DNA from: a virus
IMG/VR virus record: IMGVR_UViG_3300045988_081724
DNA: 61,211 nt
Reading direction: 5' to 3' (one strand)
Below, in pieces: positions 2,772 to 61,211 of this stretch (the stretch's first letter is position 1; every line of letters starts with the position of its first letter). The notes under the pieces are model-generated. The model saw only the letters and a list, made by a program, of their open reading frames with translations. It was not told the origin of the DNA and did no database searches. Both the position numbers and the translations under genes were made by a program.

Positions 2772-3111
2772 TCTGATGAACGATATTCCACGTCTTGATA
2801 GGTTCAGCGTTCATCCGACAGTCAATAAAATCCTTTTGGTAAAGGTGCTTTTTCTTCCCATGAGCATACACATCATGACAATCTCGACACAGAAGGATTA
2901 TATTCTCAAGAGTGTCGCTACCATATTCCGAACGATAGCGAATGTGGTGGTGATCCATTTTCCCGATAGATTTGCCACACCACTCACACCGAGGATAACC
3001 GTCACGGCTTGCTCTTCTGTCAACCATGGCGCAAATTGCTTTATATCCGGCAGGTGTAAGCCTAATTCGATCTTCTTTTTCAATCTTCATAGCGTTCTCT
3101 CTCCCACTCAT
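2704..3111 (-). CDS. HNH endonuclease (start probably 3090)
   Basis: Motif HHHIRYRSEYGSDTLENIILLCRDCHDVYAHG. A GGGAGAGAG RBS precedes the Met at 3090. Confidence 0.75.
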   Translation of the reverse strand: MSGRENAMKIEKEDRIRLTPAGYKAICAMVDRRASRDGYPRCEWCGKSIGKMDHHHIRYRSEYGSDTLENIILLCRDCHDVYAHGKKKHLYQKDFIDCRMNAEPIKTWNIVHQNEAQAIYKRYAKRTGGCKDGKE

Positions 3112-3631
3112 CTATGAGCTTTTTCCGTTCTTGGGGTGTTTTTACATCTAAGTGCTGCCGCTCTGCTTCGTCAACTAACCACTCAAGCAGTCGGGACATT
3201 TGCTCTTTGGTGTATAAGCTCGAACCTGTATAAACTCGGATCTCCCAATAGTCCCGATGTCTGCTTTCTATGTCAACGCACCACCCGATTCCGTGGCTTT
3301 CCCATTTCCTGCGTAAAGAGTCGTAAGCAAACGGCTTGACCGCTATCGTGTCCCATACTCCGACATTTCGTATTGCCGTCCGATATACGTCCTCTTTTGT
3401 AGAATGTAGCACTTTTGCTAATGCATCACACACAACCCAGCAATAAGCATTTGCCGATAGCGATCGCTTGATTTTTAACTTTCTAGCTTCCACTATGCAC
3501 TTGTCGGATTCGAGTAGATTCTTTAGTTCATCCATCTTGTCATTTGGCGTAATCAACTCTAACGAAACTGCTGTATATCCATAGTGCCTAGCAGGAGTGA
3601 AGCAATAGCGGTTTACTTTATCCCACTTCAT
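3080..3631 (-). CDS. Hypothetical protein (183 aa)
   Basis: ORF; no motif recognised. Confidence 0.45.
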   Translation of the reverse strand: MKWDKVNRYCFTPARHYGYTAVSLELITPNDKMDELKNLLESDKCIVEARKLKIKRSLSANAYCWVVCDALAKVLHSTKEDVYRTAIRNVGVWDTIAVKPFAYDSLRRKWESHGIGWCVDIESRHRDYWEIRVYTGSSLYTKEQMSRLLEWLVDEAERQHLDVKTPQERKKLIDEWERERYED

Positions 3632-9731: not shown

Positions 9732-11420
9732 ATGACTAGTGCCCGTGTTGCCATTTATATCCGTGTTTCGACAACACATCAGGTTGATAAAGACTCACTT
9801 CCTATGCAGCGTCAGGATTTAATTGCGTATGCAAAGCTCATGCTTCACACTACCGACTGTGTAATCTTTGAGGATGCCGGATACTCAGGTAAAAACATGG
9901 ATCGCCCACGCTTTCAATCCATGATGAAGCAAATTAGGCAAGGGCTTTTTACTCATGTCCTAGTTTGGAAAATTGACCGCATTAGTCGTAACTTGCTTGA
10001 CTTTGCCAGCATGTACGAGGAATTAAAATCTTTAGGTGTTACGTTCGTTTCCAAAAATGAGCAATTCGATACCTCTACCGCCATGGGCGAAGCAATGCTA
10101 AAAATTATTCTTGTATTCGCTGAACTTGAAAGAAACATGACAAGTGAGCGAGTAACGGCAACAATGATTTCAAGGGCTTCGAACGGACAATGGAACGGCG
10201 GGCGCGTCCCTTTTGGCTATAGCTATGATTCAGAAAAGAAGGAATTTTATATTAACGAAAAAGAAGCGCCCATAGTACGCTTAATCCATGATACCTACGA
10301 ACAAAATAGTTCTTTGCTTAACCTTACTCGCATTTTAAATGACAGTGGTTATAAAACTCGTGCAGGAAATGAATGGTCGCCTATTTCCGTACGAATTATC
10401 CTAAAAAATTTCTGGTATACCGGATGCTATCAATATAATCGGCTCAAAGATGGATGTCGCCAAAAGGAAAAGGATCAGTCTGAATGGGTAACGATACCAA
10501 ACCACCATCCTGCATTGATCTCTTTAAAGCAAAAGGAACGAATTGTAGAAATGCTTCGCTCAAATTACAAGCTCATTGCAGCAAACAACATTTATTACAC
10601 TTCAAACAACGTTCATGTCTTTGGTGGTTTAATTACCTGTGCCTTTTGTGGTAGACGCTACATTGCAACCACAGATACGAAAAAAGGATGGAAGATGGGG
10701 CGCTATGGATGTCCGACAAGACGGTACAGTAAAACAAAATGCTTAAATAAATCCATTTCCGACCTAACCCTTGGTGATTTTGTTTTTAACTACTTTGTTA
10801 ATCTTTTAAAAGTACAGAAGCACGCTAAAGAAATTACAACGACAGAGGAATTGCAACGTCAGCTATTATCTGGATATACCTTTAGTTCTGTAAAAGGATT
10901 ATCGCCTCAAAGTTTATTAGATACCCTGCGTCTGATCCATACGCTTAACCCCAGTGAAAAGATATACGGTAAAACTAAAGCTATAAAAAAAATTGCAAAG
11001 CCTGACAAGCAACTATTTACACTACGCGCAAAGCAAAGCAAGCTAAAAAGGGCATTAGATCGCTTGACTACGCTATACCTTTACAGTGAATCGTCTATGT
11101 CAGAAGCAGATTTTGTTGCTAAAAAAGCTGAAATCACAGATAACATAGCTAAAACGGAAGCGGAAATTTCAGAGCTTGTAAAAACTGACATACACTCGGA
11201 TATTACTGATTCTGAATTTTTGAGAAAAGCTAGTGAATTTGTTATTTCCCAGCAGCTTGTGTCCAGGAACTACATTAGCTACGAACGTTTAGCACGCACT
11301 GTAGACGTAAATATAACGCGCGAATTTATTGTAGGAACTATCGAACAAATCACCGTTCGAGACGGGCATATAGACTCCATTCTTTTCCGCAACGGTTTAT
11401 ACCACAAATTTATTTATTAG
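9732..11420 (+). CDS. int: Large serine recombinase (phage integrase)
   Basis: N-terminal resolvase catalytic domain VAIYIRVSTTHQ; 562 aa with a Cys-rich zinc-ribbon region. Confidence 0.9.
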   Translation: MTSARVAIYIRVSTTHQVDKDSLPMQRQDLIAYAKLMLHTTDCVIFEDAGYSGKNMDRPRFQSMMKQIRQGLFTHVLVWKIDRISRNLLDFASMYEELKSLGVTFVSKNEQFDTSTAMGEAMLKIILVFAELERNMTSERVTATMISRASNGQWNGGRVPFGYSYDSEKKEFYINEKEAPIVRLIHDTYEQNSSLLNLTRILNDSGYKTRAGNEWSPISVRIILKNFWYTGCYQYNRLKDGCRQKEKDQSEWVTIPNHHPALISLKQKERIVEMLRSNYKLIAANNIYYTSNNVHVFGGLITCAFCGRRYIATTDTKKGWKMGRYGCPTRRYSKTKCLNKSISDLTLGDFVFNYFVNLLKVQKHAKEITTTEELQRQLLSGYTFSSVKGLSPQSLLDTLRLIHTLNPSEKIYGKTKAIKKIAKPDKQLFTLRAKQSKLKRALDRLTTLYLYSESSMSEADFVAKKAEITDNIAKTEAEISELVKTDIHSDITDSEFLRKASEFVISQQLVSRNYISYERLARTVDVNITREFIVGTIEQITVRDGHIDSILFRNGLYHKFIY

Positions 11421-12783: not shown

Positions 12784-12870
12784 CTTTGTTTCCTCCTGTT
12801 ATTTACTAACTATTTCCTTTGTTGTATATATATTACTACATTTTGCCTGATTTGTAAAGTGATTTATTTG
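12784..12870 (-). promoter_or_regulatory. Conserved promoter+leader cassette, copy 1 (-35 TTTACA, 17 bp, -10 TAATAT, about 40-nt leader ending AGGAGGAAACAAAG-ATG)
   Basis: On the minus strand -35 is 12853-12858 and -10 is 12830-12835. Near-identical copies at 50679-50770, 55285-55350 and 60762-60850. Confidence 0.7.
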
Positions 12871-12879
12871 CAAAAACAT

Positions 12880-12930
12880 CAAAAAAATAAAGGCATCTCA
12901 TTCTTTGAGATGCCTAGTACCTTTTTATTT
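12880..12930. terminator. Bidirectional rho-independent terminator
   Basis: Hairpin AGGCATCTC-N7-GAGATGCCT with T-runs on both strands. Confidence 0.65.
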
Positions 12931-13857: not shown

Positions 13858-13894
13858 TTTACATATATTATTATATATATAATATAATAACTGT

Positions 13895-14216
13895 ATATAC
13901 CCTTACAGTAAGGTTTACTGTAAGCCTTACACAATGCACCAATTATGTGTATTTATACAAAATCAGTTAATAACAAGGCGTATAACTTGTATATTGCGTA
14001 TTTTTTGACATACTTTTATTTATGGTTCAGCCGTTGCAAAATTGCTGTAAGATTTTGTAAGTCTTACTGTAATGCTTACTGTAAGCCTTACACTCATACT
14101 TACTGTAAGCATCGCATTGTATAATTGTAATATTTCCAACAAAAACGAATACATATTTATACAATGTAAGTCTTACATGACCCCTTACAGTAAACCTTAC
14201 TGTAAGCCTTACATAA
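13895..14216. repeat. Array of 8 or more copies of the palindromic 11-mer CTTAC(T/A)GTAAG, including three copies of the 18-mer TTACTGTAAGCCTTACA; non-coding
   Basis: Read directly: clusters at about 13900-13935, 14044-14110 and 14165-14215. No ORF over 60 aa on the coding strand. Confidence 0.8.
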
Positions 14217-14261
14217 AAAACGTCATTATAATTTTCAATTCCCATAAATAAGATTTATCGA

Positions 14262-14320: not shown

Positions 14321-14695
14321 CTACTTCGCATATCGTTCCCATGTTTCAGGAAATGCGGAGTTCTTTGCGCCCTTCTTCCATGCACAATAGTCATCGGCAA
14401 TTAAGTAAGGAATATCATCTTGATAAAACGTGAATGAGGGTGCTGACACAACTGGAACATGAGGACATGTATCTGTCGAGCGCATCAAAGATGCTTCTTT
14501 TCCAGCCACAGAATAGGACGTAATACCTCCATCATGCGGACATTTTATCGTCATCACTTTTTTAAAATATTCAAATTGAATTTCATAACCTTTAAAAAGA
14601 GGTACGACATGCCCATTTTTTTCCACTTGGAAAGCAGATGCAGTAGAACTCATCAAAAGCAAAGCACAAGCAACACATAATGTCTTTACCTTCAT
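14321..14695 (-). CDS. Secreted protein with signal peptide (start at MKVKTL; the ORF extends to 14731)
   Basis: Perfect RBS GAAGGAGGATAAA before the ATG at 14695; signal MKVKTLCVACALLLMSSTASA. Confidence 0.55.
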   Translation of the reverse strand: MKVKTLCVACALLLMSSTASAFQVEKNGHVVPLFKGYEIQFEYFKKVMTIKCPHDGGITSYSVAGKEASLMRSTDTCPHVPVVSAPSFTFYQDDIPYLIADDYCAWKKGAKNSAFPETWERYAK

Positions 14696-14760
14696 TTTAT
14701 CCTCCTTCATAACGTTAGCCGTATATTTCATTTCCTCTTCATTCTACCTTACTTTGGGCA

Positions 14761-14790
14761 ATAAAAAAAGAGGGCTAGTTTCCTAGCCCT
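14761..14790. terminator. Rho-independent terminator right after the frame-A spanin-like ORF
   Basis: Hairpin AGGGCTAGTTTCCTAGCCCT with T-run on the minus strand. Confidence 0.6.
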
Positions 14791-14795
14791 TAAAA

Positions 14796-15266
14796 TCAAT
14801 TCGTTGCTTCGTAAATTGCGAGTGATCCGGCAACAAAGCACCATACATTTCTTTGCCGCTTAGCGAGATTGCGTTGATGTTGCAACGTCTTTACCTGTTG
14901 CTCTAACACTGTCAAGGATTCCTCCAATTTTGCGATTGTCGCTTTTGCATTCGTCAATGAGACGTTTACATTCCTCAAGTTCTGCCTTGCTTCTGTCAGC
15001 AGATTCTTTGCTTCGTTCAACTGCTCCAATGCCTCGCTCAATGCTTTCTCCTGCTCCGTTGAGTTTTGAGTCAGCGCGTTCAGCTTCGTTTCGAGCGTTA
15101 TCAATCTGCTTTCCTTCGTCTTGTACATATTCTCTAGCTCGGTCAACTGTGTTTCCGTTATCGTATACGTTTGTTCCTGCGCATAAGAAGTAGGCGATGA
15201 CAAGCACGCCGATAAGAATAAACACAAGATCAAGCAAATTATAAACCTTGCGAGATTTCCACCCAT
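14796..15266 (-). CDS. Frame A: lipoprotein (lipobox LSAC) with long coiled-coil and hydrophobic C-terminus; spanin-like (o- or u-spanin candidate)
   Basis: ATG lies 4 nt inside the frame-B ATG and shares RBS AAGGAAAGGTG. Q/L/E heptad-rich. The terminator follows its stop directly. Confidence 0.4.
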   Translation of the reverse strand: MGGNLARFIICLILCLFLSACLSSPTSYAQEQTYTITETQLTELENMYKTKESRLITLETKLNALTQNSTEQEKALSEALEQLNEAKNLLTEARQNLRNVNVSLTNAKATIAKLEESLTVLEQQVKTLQHQRNLAKRQRNVWCFVAGSLAIYEATN

Positions 15267-15270
15267 CCAT
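14860..15270 (-). CDS. Frame B: N-terminal TM helix plus charged coiled-coil; i-spanin-like or holin-like protein, almost completely overlapping frame A
   Basis: ATG at 15270 with the RBS 8 nt upstream; TM segment LLDLVFILIGVLVIAYFLCAG. Confidence 0.4.
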   Translation of the reverse strand: MDGWKSRKVYNLLDLVFILIGVLVIAYFLCAGTNVYDNGNTVDRAREYVQDEGKQIDNARNEAERADSKLNGAGESIERGIGAVERSKESADRSKAELEECKRLIDECKSDNRKIGGILDSVRATGKDVATSTQSR

Positions 15271-15390
15271 GATTCACACCTTTCCTTAACTGTAATCCAT
15301 TAAAATTTTGCGAATTTTGGGTCATATAGGCGTTTCCTAGCTCTTTTTGATAAATTACACATTAGCCAGCTAAGACGCCTGTAAACCCAT

Positions 15391-15939
15391 TTAATCGCTT
15401 TCCAAGTACCATTGCGCTTTTCCGCGAAGCACGTTTCCCCCACTCATCCATGTATCATCATCGTGCAGTACAGCTAAATCCCATCTTTTGTCAGGATCAT
15501 CTGATTCAAGGTCATAGCCGTCTATCATCGCAACTTCTGCGTGAGTAAGGAAATGCTCACTATCGATCGGAATGTCAAACACTTTCGCTATTTTTGCCAT
15601 TAGCATAGCAAGGGATTCGATTTGTTCATCGGTAGGAGCTTCTTCTCCTAATCGTGCATACAATCCGCCCTCGCTGTCGAAATACGCTTCCGCTTCATAA
15701 CATGCACACAACGCAATAGCTATACTTCCTTCGTTTCTCTGCCACGTTGCGGCAGGTGTCTCTGTCAGCGGTCTAGTGTTTATGATTTCTCCGTCTCCGT
15801 CAATGCAATAGTGATAATCGCTAAACGTAGTGTAGCGATGTCCTGCTGTCCAGTGTAAATAAACCTGCACCGGAAAAGGATATTGATAAAACGATGGTCT
15901 AGCTTTCTTTAGTTGATTTTCAATTTCTTCCATACTCAT
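15391..15939 (-). CDS. N-acetylmuramoyl-L-alanine amidase (Amidase_2/PGRP-type endolysin)
   Basis: YLHWTAGH motif; 182 aa; directly downstream of the holin-like genes. Confidence 0.8.
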   Translation of the reverse strand: MSMEEIENQLKKARPSFYQYPFPVQVYLHWTAGHRYTTFSDYHYCIDGDGEIINTRPLTETPAATWQRNEGSIAIALCACYEAEAYFDSEGGLYARLGEEAPTDEQIESLAMLMAKIAKVFDIPIDSEHFLTHAEVAMIDGYDLESDDPDKRWDLAVLHDDDTWMSGGNVLRGKAQWYLESD

Positions 15940-16283
15940 TTAGCATCATCCCTTCTATTGAGCGGTATTTGTGGAGCACCTGTCCCTCCTCGCTTTGCTA
16001 ACACTTCTGCAGCATCGGGGCGTCCATCGTGATTTTTGTTTACGCAAAACACGGAAACAAACGTGACAGCAGCCACAACGGACGGCTTAGAAAGCTCATC
16101 GGTGATTCGGAGCAACTTGTCAATGTCAGGAACGTCCGTCAGATACCACATGTAGAGCCATGCGATGACATTCAGCAAAACTAGCGACAAAAGACAGCCG
16201 CCATAGATGTAAACCACCCTCATGCTCGTTCGTGCCCTTGAATTTATAAAGCTCATTGCCTTTTTTGTTAATTGTTCAACCAT
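15936..16283 (-). CDS. Holin-like membrane protein (2 TM)
   Basis: Two hydrophobic segments and a charged C-terminus; position before the endolysin. Confidence 0.5.
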   Translation of the reverse strand: MVEQLTKKAMSFINSRARTSMRVVYIYGGCLLSLVLLNVIAWLYMWYLTDVPDIDKLLRITDELSKPSVVAAVTFVSVFCVNKNHDGRPDAAEVLAKRGGTGAPQIPLNRRDDAK

Positions 16284-16586
16284 CTACTTTGTCTCCAAAT
16301 CACGAAGATCTTTTAGCATCGCTGTTCCCTGCCCGTTACCACCCAGTTGATGATAGGCTTCATAGACTTCTTCGGCGATAGATTCATCTTCGTATGTAAT
16401 AAACCCCCTGGATTTTGACTCACGGTGAACTTTGCGAAGCTCGATTTTCAGAAGCGCACGAGTCCCCTTTTCAATTGCTTGCTGTCGGTCGGATAGTGCT
16501 TTTGACTTATTCCAAAGATAGCCAACGGCAAAAGAAGCCGCCGTCAAAAGTGCCTGTATAATAAACCCATGTAAAATTCCATCCAT
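16284..16586 (-). CDS. Holin-like membrane protein (1 N-terminal TM)
   Basis: TM segment FIIQALLTAASFAVGYLW; charged C-terminus. Confidence 0.45.
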   Translation of the reverse strand: MDGILHGFIIQALLTAASFAVGYLWNKSKALSDRQQAIEKGTRALLKIELRKVHRESKSRGFITYEDESIAEEVYEAYHQLGGNGQGTAMLKDLRDLETK

Positions 16587-45080: not shown

Positions 45081-45244
45081 GACCTGCCCTGTTTTCCGAT
45101 ATCAAAGAAAATCATTGGTTTAGCAGCAAAAAACATAAGATAAAAGTATTAGGCACAACATATCGACTTATGCTTTGTTACAAGGCAGGTGTTAAGTTGT
45201 AATGCGGTTTCACATGGATGCTAATGTATGCTAGACCGCGCTAG

Positions 45245-45314
45245 GGTTAGGAATGGATTTGAACCATTATTTGGCGATTTCAGGTCGCCCGTTTTACCAT
45301 TAAACTACCTAACC
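45245..45314 (-). tRNA. tRNA (70 nt, no encoded CCA); anticodon loop CCUGAAA, apparent anticodon UGA with non-canonical C33 and a short variable arm; identity uncertain
   Basis: Manual cloverleaf: acceptor GGTTAGG/CCTAACC, D-arm GTTT-AATGGTA-AAAC, anticodon stem GGCGA/TCGCC, T-arm AATGG-TTCAAAT-CCATT. Confidence 0.5.
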
Positions 45315-45426
45315 ATGCAGTGCCTCTAATGTACACTCATCATGAATACATAAGAGGCAAACATTGAGGGGGTGTAAACGGTGGATCAGTCCCTCTCCAG
45401 TGGAGAAACCTTACACTCATTTACAT

Positions 45427-45490
45427 TGGTGAGCAGCACTAGATTTGAACTAGCAAAGTCTTTTGACCGCAAATTTACGGTTAGCTACTC
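45427..45490 (-). pseudogene. Truncated tRNA-like element: duplicate of the 3' part of the adjacent tRNA-Tyr (T-arm, acceptor, CCA) with no anticodon arm
   Basis: Shares GTCAAAAGACTT-CTAGTTCAAATCTAGTGCTGC-CACCA with 45512-45594; 64 nt. Confidence 0.4.
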
Positions 45491-45511
45491 TATACTCCCT
45501 AGTCGCATACA

Positions 45512-45594
45512 TGGTGGGCAGCACTAGATTTGAACTAGTGAAGTCTTTTGACTCAGACTTACGGTCTGTCCTTTAGCCGCTTGGATAGCTGCCC
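45512..45594 (-). tRNA. tRNA-Tyr(GUA)-like, class II (long variable arm), anticodon loop CCGUAAG with C33
   Basis: Acceptor GGGCAGC/GCTGCCC plus ACCA; D-loop AAGCGGCTAAA; T-arm CACTAG?TTCAAAT. Confidence 0.55.
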
Positions 45595-45629
45595 ATGTAT
45601 TGTAAACCATTTTCGCGATACTACGAAAA

Positions 45630-45705
45630 TGGTGGGGACAGCAGGACTTGAACCCACATCGAAGCGGTTATGAGCCGCTTGCTTTACCATTTAAGCTATA
45701 TCCCC
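45630..45705 (-). tRNA. tRNA-Met(CAU) (elongator type; could be Ile2)
   Basis: 76 nt including CCA; anticodon stem AGCGG/CCGCT; loop CUCAUAA. Confidence 0.7.
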
Positions 45706-45717
45706 AAAGACGCATTG

Positions 45718-45780
45718 TGGGTTTGGAAGGACTTGAACCCTCGACACAAAATCGCTCTAGCCAACTGAGCTACAAACCCA
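45718..45780 (-). ncRNA. 63-nt tRNA-like element with acceptor, D-arm and T-arm but no anticodon arm
   Basis: GGGTTTG-TA-GCTCAGTTGGCTAGAGC-GATTTTGTGTC-GAGGGTTCAAGTCCTTC-CAAACCC-A. Confidence 0.4.
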
Positions 45781-46543
45781 TATGCAAGGCAAGCTCGTGG
45801 CTCACCTTGCACTTATCATTCGGAGGAAACCGAATCTTCATGCCGAGCAAAACAGGTCGTCGCCCCTCTTTTGCTCATGTAAAGGGTAAAACGGGTAGTT
45901 AGCCGATTTCACCCACATATGCGCTCTACGCCCGCACAAGCGCAGAGCTAACTTTCCTTAGCCAAGAAACATTTAAGCGGCGCAGCCTAGTTTTTCCCAA
46001 TGACGGCTACACTTCATGAGTACGATAACCCGATAGTACGTCCGGCACATGTGAACCCATCAAAAGTTCGCTTTAGAATTAGTTGAGAGCGTGTTCACAC
46101 TGTTGCTTCCCCTAACGTTGGGAACTTTTAGCATCCACGACTGCTCCAACACTCCGCAGCAGAGTATTTTCCTTTTTACGTTAGACCCGAAGGAAGAAAC
46201 GCCGTTTTTCTGTGCATGAGCTTAACGATAACTCTCCACTCCGGTAAGTGGAACCCCCTGTTTAGAGCCTTAGAAACAGCACTAGTACCGTCCCATGCAT
46301 GCAGGGACACGCTTTTTCGTAGGTGTAGCGCGCACCGGACACTTTTAAGGTGCTCCGAACCATCCTTCCATTTTCGTAAGGAAACTTTAGCACGCCACTC
46401 TATCGCTGTGGATTGCGCTCTGTCCTTTATACTGATGACATGCTGTCAGCCGCACGCTACATTTTTGCCATGGCATGTTGTGCGGAGCTGGTGGGAGTCA
46501 TTTATACTCGCCCCCCGGAGAGTGCTGCCTTTTCGGCAACCAT

Positions 46544-46617
46544 TGGCAGGGAGTGATGGAATCGAACCATCGATGCAGGAGTCAAATTCCCGTGCCTTAC
46601 CTCTTGGCGAACCCCCT
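46544..46617 (-). tRNA. tRNA-Gln(UUG)
   Basis: 74 nt including CCA; anticodon stem CGGGA/TCCTG; loop AUUUGAC; T-arm GATGG-TTCGATT-CCATC. Confidence 0.7.
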
Positions 46618-46723
46618 ATAATTCCATGTAGTTATTGCTACATGGAGTGATACCGCAACGATATTACGCGCTCCCATGCGGTTAGGATACGCCCCTATAT
46701 TTTAAGCCACTTGGGTAGGCTAT

Positions 46724-46815
46724 TGGCGGATACAGTAGGATTTGCACCTACGAGCGGCTTACAATCCGCTTCTTGCTTAGCAGGCAAGCACCTTCGACTA
46801 CTCGGTCATGTATCC
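46724..46815 (-). tRNA. tRNA-Ser(GCU)
   Basis: 92 nt; anticodon stem CTTGC/GCAAG; loop CUGCUAA; long variable arm; CCA encoded. Confidence 0.7.
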
Positions 46816-46816
46816 A

Positions 46817-46905
46817 TGGCGGAAGCGGTAGGATTCGAACCTACGCCCAGTTTCCCAGCTCTCTGTTTTCAAGACAGTTCCCTTTGACCTCTTGGGTACG
46901 CTTCC
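46817..46905 (-). tRNA. tRNA-Ser(UGA)
   Basis: 89 nt; loop CUUGAAA; long variable arm GAGCTGGGAAACTGGGC; T-arm GTAGG-TTCGAAT-CCTAC; CCA encoded. Confidence 0.7.
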
Positions 46906-50678: not shown

Positions 50679-50770
50679 CTTTGTTTCCTCCTGTTATTTA
50701 CTAACTATTTCCTTTGTTGTATATATATTACTACATTTCCCACGATTTGTAAAGTGATTTATTGTCTTAG
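50679..50770 (-). promoter_or_regulatory. Conserved promoter+leader cassette copy
   Basis: Near-identical to 12784-12870 through the -10 element; diverges upstream. Confidence 0.65.
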
Positions 50771-50797
50771 CTGGCATTTTCCCGATACAAGTTTGCA

Positions 50798-50832
50798 ACA
50801 AAAAAGCCCATCAAATTTTGATAGGCTTTTAT
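50798..50832. terminator. Terminator-like imperfect hairpin
   Basis: AGCCCATCAAA-TTTGATAGGCT with T-run on the minus strand. Confidence 0.45.
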
Positions 50833-55035: not shown

Positions 55036-55284
55036 TTAATCCATTGCCATATATTTAGGCTCATCATCAATGGTTATGTTCCAAAGGAACAGATAATCAT
55101 CTCGAATCTCTTTATTTTCCCAATTTTCTTTTCGGAGCCTTACTGCGTCAATAACTTCCCATTCGCCATTGTCGTCCTTGTCAATCCATTCAAAAAGTCC
55201 TCTTTCGTAGTTGTAACGGAACTTTCTGCCGCTTCTTTTAACAATTTTGCTGTACTTCATTTTGTGCCTCCTGTTATTTACCAA
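55036..55284 (-). CDS. Hypothetical protein (82 aa) driven by a promoter-cassette copy
   Basis: ORF directly downstream of the conserved leader. Confidence 0.5.
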   Translation of the reverse strand: MVNNRRHKMKYSKIVKRSGRKFRYNYERGLFEWIDKDDNGEWEVIDAVRLRKENWENKEIRDDYLFLWNITIDDEPKYMAMD

Positions 55285-55350
55285 CTTTTTTCTTTGTTGT
55301 ATATATATTACTACATTTTGCCTGATTTGTAAAGTGATTTATTGTCTAAG
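55285..55350 (-). promoter_or_regulatory. Conserved promoter+leader cassette copy
   Basis: Near-identical core TTTACA-17-TAATAT plus leader. Confidence 0.65.
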
Positions 55351-55370
55351 TTAGTAAATCGTCGCCAAGA

Positions 55371-55413
55371 ATTTTTAAAAAAAGATACGCTCCGATAGAT
55401 CAGAACGTATCTT
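55371..55413. terminator. Rho-independent terminator downstream of the ArpU-like gene
   Basis: Hairpin AAGATACG-N16-CGTATCTT with TTTTT on the minus strand. Confidence 0.55.
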
Positions 55414-60323: not shown

Positions 60324-60761
60324 TCAGTTGATTTCAAAAACCAAAGCATGAAGAATTTCCTGTTTTCTGCTCCATGGGTCAGTTTTTCCCTTAACCTCTT
60401 TCATTCCAACCATTCGGCATCCGGCTTTCTGTAGTTCCCATGCATTTTCGATCGCTCTCGTCCAGCCGGAGGAAAAGGTGAAGCGCTTCACTCCGTTTTC
60501 CTTGAGGCAGGCGATGCAGCTTTCGGTCTTGTCAATGTAGTTATGGAAATTCAGATCTTCGTTTCCATTCTTTCGGGACTCTTCGTATTCGCTGTAGATG
60601 AATGCGAACACCGAGCCTTCCTTGTGGTAGCGAGCTTTCCATGCCTTGTAGGCGTTTCTAGCTTTTGCCTTCCCTGCTTCGTCCATTCTTTCTTCTGCCT
60701 CATCAAACGCCTTGTCGAAGGTCTTGTATTCTTGGTAGGCTTTTTCAAATTTGTTTGTCAT
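60324..60761 (-). CDS. Hypothetical protein (145 aa) driven by a promoter-cassette copy
   Basis: ORF directly downstream of the conserved leader. Confidence 0.5.
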   Translation of the reverse strand: MTNKFEKAYQEYKTFDKAFDEAEERMDEAGKAKARNAYKAWKARYHKEGSVFAFIYSEYEESRKNGNEDLNFHNYIDKTESCIACLKENGVKRFTFSSGWTRAIENAWELQKAGCRMVGMKEVKGKTDPWSRKQEILHALVFEIN

Positions 60762-60850
60762 GGTGGTTTCCTCCCATTTACTAACTATTTCCTTTGTTGT
60801 ATATATATTACTACATTTTGCTTGATTTGTAAAGTGATTTGTTGTCTAAA
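60762..60850 (-). promoter_or_regulatory. Conserved promoter+leader cassette copy
   Basis: Near-identical core to 12784-12870. Confidence 0.65.
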
Positions 60851-60883
60851 ATCGCATGTTTTTGACTTTTCGTAGCAAAAAAA

Positions 60884-61211
60884 TTAGAGGAGAATATCAC
60901 TTTCTACTTCATTTCCCCATACGTCCCATCTTGAATGCGGCTCGCGAGCAAAGAGCTCGCAGTAGGGTCCATAGGATACGCTCTCAATCATGCGGCGCAT
61001 CTCCTCCGGCTTTCGACTGTGGATGGTGCGCGTGGCGGTGAATCCTGTGAGCCCCTGACAGCGCTTCCCATCTGCGCCGATTTTGTAGGGCGGGTGCCCC
61101 TTGATCCCAAAGAGGCAGCTCTCGGTGATGCCCCGGAAATACTGCCCGAGACCTGCGCGGTCTTTCAGCCACGTGATCATAGTCACATAGCGGAAGCCCC
61201 ATGCCTCCATG
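60884..61211 (-). CDS. DNA methyltransferase MT-A70 family, C-terminal part (continues from 261->1 across the junction; 61151-61211 duplicates 1-61)
   Basis: ...MEAWGFRYVTMITWLKDRAGLGQYFRGITESCLFGIKG...HSRKPEEMRRMIE...WDVWGNEV. Confidence 0.75.
   Translation of the reverse strand, partial: MEAWGFRYVTMITWLKDRAGLGQYFRGITESCLFGIKGHPPYKIGADGKRCQGLTGFTATRTIHSRKPEEMRRMIESVSYGPYCELFAREPHSRWDVWGNEVESDILL
61151..61211. repeat. Terminal direct duplication (copy 2), identical to 1-61
   Basis: Exact identity to positions 1-61. Confidence 0.9.

Follow-up and report, generated by a model that had tools for sequence, protein, structure and literature searches.

The window analyzed here, that is, the whole 61,211-nucleotide (nt) stretch of IMG/VR virus record IMGVR_UViG_3300045988_081724, ends its lysis cassette with two open reading frames (ORFs) that occupy nearly the same nucleotides of the same strand. 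We refer to this gene pair as A and B. ORF B encodes 136 amino acids (aa) and ORF A, in the +1 frame relative to B, encodes 156; the two share 407 nt, and A extends 64 nt beyond the stop codon of B. Their ATG codons, at 15270 for B and 15266 for A, lie 4 nt apart in a region that reads ...AAGGAAAGGTGTGAATC ATG G ATG GGT..., and a single ribosome-binding site (RBS) is spaced 6 to 8 nt from the ATG of B and 10 to 12 nt from that of A. An earlier note on this DNA, made from the letters alone, had drawn attention to the near-complete same-strand overlap, the closely spaced ATGs, and the single RBS, all of which we confirmed from the sequence. The features of the pair, including the transmembrane (TM) helix of B, are as follows.

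14860-15270, minus strand: ORF B, candidate inner-membrane (i-spanin-like) subunit; TM helix followed by a long charged helix, with gene-like codon usage
14796-15266, minus strand: ORF A, candidate partner subunit; signal peptide, TYTITETQL, coiled coil, and C-terminal tail
15277-15287, minus strand: shared purine-rich RBS AAGGAAAGGTG, read from the sequence as serving both starts
15144-15170, minus strand: most conserved nucleotides of the pair, encoding T-Y-T-I-T-E-T-Q-L in A and (N)VYDNGNTV in B
14796-14859, minus strand: A-only tail, comprising RQRN and the hydrophobic C-terminal anchor (VWCFVAGSLAIY-EATN)
14761-14790, minus strand: intrinsic terminator (8-bp stem at 14790-14771, GAAA loop, T run) immediately after the stop codon of A, ending the lysis operon

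The conserved block at 15144-15170 falls just past the signal cleavage site in A and just outside the TM helix in B. An Rfam scan found no structured RNA that would account for the conserved nucleotides of the pair.

Related loci were gathered in four independent ways: with a DNA core pattern in viral contigs, with an A-frame peptide motif in metagenomes, with C-terminal A motifs in viral contigs, and with B-frame motifs of a remote subgroup in viral contigs. Most of the hits that exact patterns gave in viral contigs, such as L021 and L044, arose by chance and were set aside. Among the approximately 125 related loci, both frames were full-length in all except one. They were open in the 16 distinct sequences of the window clade, in at least 12 deep lineages found via the A-frame motif (20 to 36% identity to the window in A), in 45 of 45 Phascolarctobacterium-type loci retrieved via A only, and in 42 of the 43 Megasphaera-type loci retrieved via B only. 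The third frame is broken everywhere, into pieces of 5 to 48 codons (23 in the window). The sole broken locus, L155 (approximately 3001 to 3450), carries a 1-nt frameshift, so that the first half of B runs on into the second half of A; it may reflect an assembly error or a pseudogene. Gene callers chose frame B in close relatives (10 clusters at 81 to 99% identity, all 136 to 137 aa long); frame A has been annotated in one close relative and in one that is only 34% identical, the latter on a contig (L001) in which both overlapping frames are intact.

We calculated exactly, over synonymous codons, the probability that one frame would be open given the protein encoded by the other and the codon usage of the phage. 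For the window, this probability was 7 × 10⁻⁶ for B given the A protein and 4 × 10⁻³ for A given the B protein; per lineage, the values ranged from 1 × 10⁻⁶ to 6 × 10⁻⁴ and from 2 × 10⁻³ to 5 × 10⁻², respectively. In addition, synonymous codons were shuffled within each gene in 14 lineages, with the protein and the codon usage kept. When A was treated as the primary gene, the permuted sequences contained a mean of 34 stops in the B frame (minimum, 22), and when B was primary, a mean of 29 stops in the A frame (minimum, 19); no stop was observed in either direction. Identity in the other frame also exceeded that of the permuted sequences, at 23.7% versus 15.7% and 31.7% versus 19.8% (z = 22 and 26). 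As a control for saturation, the neighboring amidase gene was compared between the window, L064, and L028 and showed no excess of shared codons (z = 0.2), whereas the overlap gave z = 2.2 for the same three lineages and z = 5.5 (A) and 10.4 (B) for nine deep lineages.

These results bear on the explanation that one frame alone is a gene and that the other stays open as a side effect of coding for a coiled coil or a low-complexity sequence, an alternative already raised in the earlier note as a compositional artifact. Such an explanation would fit the annotation of one frame per locus by gene callers and the codon usage of A, which is below that of every real gene tested. It is contradicted by the permutations, which never gave fewer than 19 alternative-frame stops beside a flanking gene that is synonymously saturated, and by cross-retrieval, since every locus fetched via a single frame has the second one as well. 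It is further opposed by motifs specific to each frame, by conservation of the paired start, and by purifying selection on the A-only tail, and a set of recent copies of one sequence is excluded by protein identities of 20 to 35%. The comparative evidence makes dual coding of the pair very nearly certain: the overlap appears to be a true dual-coding unit, and a one-frame artifact, which we consider extremely improbable, is effectively excluded as judged from the sequences.

The unusual co-start architecture, remarked upon previously for the window, proved to be conserved in its own right, as a paired start (ATGnATG or GTGTATG) is kept in 7 of 13 deep lineages. One Megasphaera prophage has the start ATGTG, in which A comes first and then B, and in other lineages the starts are 7 to 40 nt apart; the +1 relation of A to B holds in every case. 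A programmed frameshift joining A and B was considered and judged needless, because each frame has its own start.

Polymorphisms in four shallow clades were sorted by their effect in both frames. Within clades, double-nonsynonymous changes were depleted and changes synonymous in one frame were enriched (P = 0.001, 4 × 10⁻⁴, 0.09, and 0.048 for frame A; P = 0.016, 0.77, 0.013, and 0.26 for frame B). None of 677 variants in the overlap created a stop codon, compared with about 9% expected of random changes, and all 10 variants in the A-only tail of the window clade were at third codon positions (P = 1.7 × 10⁻⁵). This pattern indicates that both frames are maintained, with stronger amino acid constraint on A. 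Lower nucleotide diversity in the overlap than in its flanks had also been considered as an argument, but it was an artifact of one locus with a different endolysin (L053); pairwise identities were similar, and the argument was dropped.

Codon usage distinguished the two frames. B scored 0.32, compared with 0.25 ± 0.07 for the real genes of the phage. A scored 0.01 to 0.04, which is below every real gene (the lowest being 0.088) but above all off-frame sequences (the highest being −0.019), and the third frame, C, scored −0.30. Phage-like codon usage in a single frame had been suggested in the earlier note as a sign that the other is spurious; this yardstick was misleading here, as the comparative data show that both are maintained. 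Because the codon usage of B is gene-like and that of A is intermediate, the scores suggest instead that B is the ancestral frame and that A was overprinted later.

The stronger constraint on A is relevant to a second alternative, in which the effector would be A by itself, a C-terminally anchored coiled coil working in a unimolecular way like a spanin or a fusion protein, and B would be mainly a modulator, a chaperone-like protein, or a decoy product of alternative initiation. Purifying selection is stronger on A in three of the four shallow clades, A holds the most invariant motif, and B of the Phascolarctobacterium clade shows no amino acid-level constraint beyond an open frame. Nevertheless, it is B that has the gene-like codon usage and looks ancestral; B also has conserved motifs of its own at both the N terminus (MYEKIK..W) and the C terminus (E-C-Q-x-I...VR..G) and is constrained at deep divergence (z = 10.4), and A does not carry the outer-membrane lipoprotein signal that defines unimolecular spanins (u-spanins). 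On balance, we think it quite unlikely that A acts alone and favor a function that involves both proteins.

In the window, B consists of a short cytoplasmic N terminus, a TM helix (approximately aa 12 to 31), a juxtamembrane NVYDNGN sequence, a long charged helix, and an ECK..I..ECK / VRATG region. The same order was found across the family (82 representatives at 50% identity): a short basic N terminus (often MYEKIK.W) precedes one TM helix and a D-[IV]-[YH]-D-N-G-N-like juxtamembrane motif, after which come a charged helix of about 95 aa and a C-terminal E-[CS]-Q-x-I-[IL]..VR..G. An AlphaFold2 (AF2) model of window B contains helices at 4 to 31 and 41 to 135, with a low predicted local distance difference test (pLDDT) score. 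The layout by which i-spanins are recognized, an N-terminal TM domain (TMD) and a periplasmic helical domain, is present in B of all lineages. In searches against PHROGs, 30 of 61 family members matched phrog_18860, which is unannotated, and the sole recurrent functional label was "Rz-like spanin" (nine PHROGs; best E value, 3.8 × 10⁻⁸). The description of B as i-spanin-like, which the earlier note had based on its N-terminal TM helix and charged coiled coil, thus holds for its architecture and is joined by the matches of its relatives to Rz-like spanin PHROGs. Pfam and PHROG scans of window A and B themselves returned only subthreshold coiled-coil noise.

The A protein of the window begins with a signal peptide (aa 1 to 29; SYA|QE), followed by TYTITETQL, a heptad coiled coil, KRQRN, and, at the C terminus, a tail that is short and hydrophobic. 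A profile search with A gave 660 protein matches, and the family had no consistent match. Its members have a cleavable signal peptide with AXA-type (signal peptidase I-like) sites immediately ahead of the conserved block; an invariant motif, Y-x-I-T-E-T-[QE]-L..LE, at or near the mature N terminus; and a heptad coiled coil of about 100 aa that leads to a basic K-x-Q-R-[ND]-x-W. The C-terminal hydrophobic stretch is usually exactly 15 residues ending in Lys and is 12 residues in the window. This helical type of tail is found in the window, Megasphaera, and Acidaminococcus forms of A. In the Phascolarctobacterium and Megamonas relatives, a Pro-rich linker takes its place, with four short β strands of amphipathic character after it, and these proteins end in ...V-W-V-T-Y-A-Y, resembling the β-signal of outer membrane proteins (OMPs). 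An AF2 model of a 170-aa relative of A has three to four strands in the C-terminal domain, at low confidence.

Window A carries a lipobox, LSAC, on which the earlier note had relied in calling it a lipoprotein. That part of the description did not stand, because the Cys is polymorphic within the window clade: six siblings (L002, L006, L007, L049, L052, and L053) have LSAF, with Phe in place of Cys. In L062 and L063 there is no Cys near the cleavage site, and in lineages with a conserved Cys, the residue before it (position −1) is Y, F, W, I, or T, not the expected G, A, or S, and so does not fit LspA sites. The long coiled coil and hydrophobic C terminus described at the same time are evident in the sequence. 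A resemblance to unimolecular spanins had also been proposed; with a lipoprotein signal that is not conserved and a periplasmic domain that is a coiled coil, A departs from these proteins on both counts. We rejected A as a canonical lipoprotein or u-spanin because the lipobox is not conserved.

Upstream of the pair, the lysis cassette of the window contains the following genes.

15391-15939, minus strand: endolysin, immediately upstream of the pair; single-domain Amidase_2 (PF01510; E value, 6 × 10⁻¹²) of 182 aa with no cell wall-binding domain
15936-16283 (115 aa) and 16284-16586 (100 aa), minus strand: two small membrane proteins of holin type (phrog_4105) at the head of the cassette

The pair is always found downstream of a short endolysin without a wall-binding domain, and directly after it in the window and most lineages. 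These endolysins are of several types: Amidase_2 (180 to 200 aa), GH25 (approximately 200 aa), VgrG3-C-like lysozyme (209 aa), and YkuD-like (approximately 140 aa). A position suited to spanins, downstream of holin-like genes and an amidase, had been pointed out before, and the pair is indeed the last unit of the cassette in the window and its relatives. A Y-H-x-L-G-x-N-G motif, compared by eye rather than by alignment, is shared between the window holin-type gene and the short N-terminal-TM protein that opens the L028 (Phascolarctobacterium-type) and Megasphaera-type cassettes. Homologs of the window amidase among cultured phages occur only in phages of diderm hosts, and the window amidase is 37% identical to the amidase of a Phascolarctobacterium faecium prophage. 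The window terminase has its closest counterparts in Clostridium and Clostridioides phages. A diderm-type amidase together with a Clostridium-like terminase is the mix expected of a Negativicutes phage (10.1101/606087).

The named sources of family members or their immediate neighbors are P. faecium, Megasphaera paucivorans, M. hexanoica, M. elsdenii, Acidaminococcus timonensis, and Megamonas funiformis. All named hosts belong to the Negativicutes, of which they represent three orders. A diderm host such as the Negativicutes, as the earlier note had anticipated, is therefore supported for the family, and for the window phage itself it is only inferred. In the complete P. faecium genome CP195918.1, the pair, with both frames open, closes a P2-like prophage and has a host autotransporter gene beside it. 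Negativicutes lack LolA/LolB (PMC5007114). Surveys of spanins have reported them in phages of Pseudomonadota (all types) and Bacteroidetes (unimolecular only) and have found none in phages of Gram-positive hosts or cyanobacteria; diderm Firmicutes are not treated in them (PMC6139136, PMC12596118). A comparative study of Negativicutes prophages annotated only holins and lysins (10.1101/606087), and our literature search found no paper linking spanins to Negativicutes phages. Cultured phages gave no DNA match and included none with the pair; in tblastn searches of cultured phages, nothing was found for B of L055 or A of L136, and window A gave only a partial coiled-coil match in Vibrio phage VP4B. 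Two scans of species-representative genomes with A-frame motifs found no relative. In public records, only one of the two overlapping genes is annotated each time, and A-type proteins are misnamed "peptidase M24" (WP_337928505.1, Acidaminococcus timonensis, NCBI) and "chromosome segregation ATPase" (JGI). Public annotation also gives the label "CHASE3 domain sensor protein" to the gene that opens the cassette.

A spanin equivalent is the most economical explanation for the pair because of its position in the cassette, the occurrence of holin candidates apart from it, named hosts that are all diderm Firmicutes, and the absence of LolA/LolB. The Rz-like spanin matches of the B family, the terminator right behind A, and the autotransporter gene next to the P. 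faecium locus also count in favor. We lean slightly toward the view that A and B form a lipoprotein-independent, spanin-like outer-membrane disruption module of Negativicutes phages, a function inferred from these features. In such a module, ribosomes at the single RBS would start at either ATG 15270 (B) or ATG 15266 (A) and so produce two unrelated membrane proteins. B would be a type II inner-membrane protein with a periplasmic charged helix of about 100 aa, the architecture of an Rz-type i-spanin. A would be exported via its cleavable signal peptide, exposing the invariant, β-prone Y-x-I-T-E-T-Q/E-L on a coiled-coil stalk of about 100 aa; its C-terminal anchor would sit in a membrane, with the conserved N-terminal tip at the end of the coiled coil. 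The pair would act after the holin and the wall-binding-domain-free endolysin to breach the outer membrane. Because Negativicutes are without LolA/LolB, a lipoprotein-type outer-membrane spanin (o-spanin) would not be deliverable to the outer membrane, and A would replace it with a protein anchor. For the β-anchored relatives of A, the anchoring membrane is probably the outer membrane. The topologies, the contact between A and B, the membrane that holds the helical tail of A, and the spanin function are all predicted from these features.

The lipoprotein-free link could be made in two ways. In one version, the partner would be an oligomeric β anchor inserted by the β-barrel assembly machinery (BAM); in the other, the invariant Y-x-I-T-E-T-Q/E-L strand would dock by β-augmentation onto an outer-membrane or OmpM-type component. 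We propose, more tentatively than the function itself, that the pair may represent a new spanin class specific to diderm Firmicutes, in which both subunits come from nearly the same nucleotides and the outer membrane is linked without a lipoprotein.

Several observations weigh against a spanin-like module. The window-type tail of A (12 to 15 residues) would by default be an inner-membrane stop-transfer sequence, in which case neither subunit would reach the outer membrane and the link would be unexplained. This tail is short, carries more positive charge on the periplasmic side, and lies at the extreme C terminus; it could act as a stop-transfer sequence in the inner membrane or slip through the translocon, and it is the weakest link of the model. 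A does not conserve the lipobox that defines o-spanins and u-spanins ([LVI][ASTVI][GAS]C, with a lipidated Cys). The AF2 models of window B and the relative of A are of low confidence (pLDDT, 55 to 58), and the β domain had no Pfam match (P0118 was scanned, with YadA_anchor included). Window B had no PHROG match at E ≤ 1 × 10⁻³, the best being phrog_18860 at 0.0024, and matches among profiles of the TM-plus-coiled-coil kind can be compositional. B-specific amino acid constraint was weak or undetectable in two of the four shallow clades. Only seven host names are available, and a diderm host for the window phage itself is one that we infer from family membership, the 37%-identical amidase, and GC content. 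Finally, in P. faecium CP195918.1, the pair lies 1.1 kb from the amidase and adjoins host genes, which is a moron-like position.

Some of these points would suit a third alternative, in which both frames code but the products are not spanins. They might be lysis-timing regulators (holin/antiholin-like, as T4 T and RI) or some other membrane-acting accessory or lysogenic-conversion (exclusion) module at the prophage end. Regulators acting in the manner of T4 T and RI comprise a one-TM protein with a large periplasmic domain and a secreted partner. With a helical tail, both A and B would by default be inner-membrane proteins, and the window proteins themselves have no significant match to a characterized spanin. 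The separation of the pair from the endolysin, where it abuts host genes in P. faecium, fits this alternative, as does a two-gene insertion between the amidase and the B/A pair in L028 (3528-4410), which shows that the pair is separable from the endolysin. The inserted genes resemble a toxin-antitoxin pair (a SocA/Panacea-type antitoxin and a toxin-like partner), as judged by eye with no family search run. On the other hand, holin-type proteins, one or two per cassette, are already present, Rz-like spanin is the only functional label that recurs in the B family, and relatives of A bear an OMP-type C-terminal β-signal. Moreover, the named hosts are all diderm Firmicutes although the phages are otherwise close to phages of monoderm Firmicutes, and the outer membrane must be breached with no other candidate present. 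We consider a nonspanin role unlikely, though less so than action of A alone, and retain the spanin-like module as the preferred explanation.

Other features of the window were recorded alongside the pair. Its ends are an identical 61-nt direct repeat (1-61 and 61151-61211), which indicates a circular assembly and a phage genome of about 61.15 kb (approximately 61,150 bp). The phage encodes a contractile tail (DUF3383 sheath and baseplate J), a serine integrase (9732-11420), and RecT. Just past the lysis terminator, positions 14321-14731 (minus strand) encode a separate small, moron-like secreted protein with a signal peptide ending ...STASA|FQ; it recurs in relatives (L002, 8715-9104). The AT-rich intergenic region downstream of the lysis operon (13863-14217) contains arrays of a 12-nt palindromic unit, CCTTACAGTAAG, at 13901-13931, 14056-14110, and 14183-14217; these may be protein-binding sites or the attP site for the nearby serine integrase. 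A 124-nt repeat occurs in four dispersed copies (12785-12908, 50680-50803, 55260-55383, and 60760-60883) that are 71 to 78% identical, and it is kept in related phages. A cluster of five tRNA genes (Ser-TGA twice, Ser-GCT, Met, and Gln) lies at 45244-46905 on the minus strand. The 61-kb phage is also carried on contigs of 118 to 379 kb, which may represent tandem copies or assemblies of a concatemer-like kind; along the 21 kb examined of the 118-kb contig, the circular gene order continues with no host junction.

No spanins are known for phages of diderm Firmicutes (PMC12596118, 10.1101/606087), and the textbook lipoprotein o-spanin should fail in Negativicutes because LolA/LolB are absent. 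The pair is the best candidate yet for the step that opens the outer membrane, and since it is concrete, widespread, and conserved (660 A-profile proteins and 82 B representatives), it makes this step accessible to experiment. If the pair does represent a new, lipoprotein-free spanin class, it would give a first answer to how Negativicutes phages breach an outer membrane that lacks the Lol pathway, and the overlap would be among the longest conserved same-strand overlaps in tailed phages giving two folded proteins. The pair is also a clean natural case in which two ordered coiled-coil membrane proteins share some 400 nt of coding sequence and in which two starts in different frames, 4 nt apart, draw on one RBS.

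Among known systems, the pair most invites comparison with Rz/Rz1 of lambda (and 18.5/18.7 of T7). Both arrangements close the lysis cassette and combine a subunit made of an N-terminal TMD and a periplasmic coiled coil with a second gene read from the same DNA in the +1 frame; the named hosts of the family, like those of lambda and T7, have an outer membrane. Rz1 is a proline-rich, unstructured lipoprotein of about 60 aa whose gene starts at 0.4 to 0.5 of the length of Rz (PMC6139136). In contrast, A exceeds the TMD subunit in length, has its start only 4 nt from that of B (at approximately 0.01 of the length of B), and overlaps it almost totally; A is also a structured coiled coil with a signal peptide, no conserved lipobox, and a C-terminal membrane anchor of its own. 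The window proteins have no detectable sequence homology to Rz/Rz1. An origin by overprinting has been proposed for Rz1 inside Rz, and the same order is suggested for A on B. In P2, the LysC gene passes the stop of the TMD subunit LysB, as A passes that of B by 64 nt; unlike A/B, that overlap is partial and LysC is a lipoprotein. Like A, the u-spanin gp11 of T1 closes the cassette and has, within a single chain, an export signal at the N terminus and a hydrophobic anchor at the C terminus. It differs in its functional outer-membrane lipobox and mainly β-strand periplasmic domain, whereas A is a coiled coil that always occurs with B.

The Phascolarctobacterium and Megamonas forms of A also resemble trimeric autotransporter anchors and TolC-type barrels, in that a coiled-coil stalk is followed by four short amphipathic strands and an aromatic β-signal. 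Four strands are too few for a barrel unless the protein oligomerizes. Unlike the trimeric autotransporter anchors, however, β-type A has no YadA_anchor match, has a Pro-rich linker at the position of the pore helix, and is represented by a low-confidence AF2 model, and the tail of window A is a helix. As an overprinted gene, A with B is like other viral same-strand pairs in that both frames are constrained and that one has genome-like codon usage while the other is atypical. What sets A/B apart from those pairs is its length: for a tailed phage, about 400 nt is unusually long for an overlap that encodes two ordered helical membrane proteins and is conserved across three bacterial orders. We view the pair as a variant on the known spanin arrangement, with a real chance that it constitutes a new spanin class.

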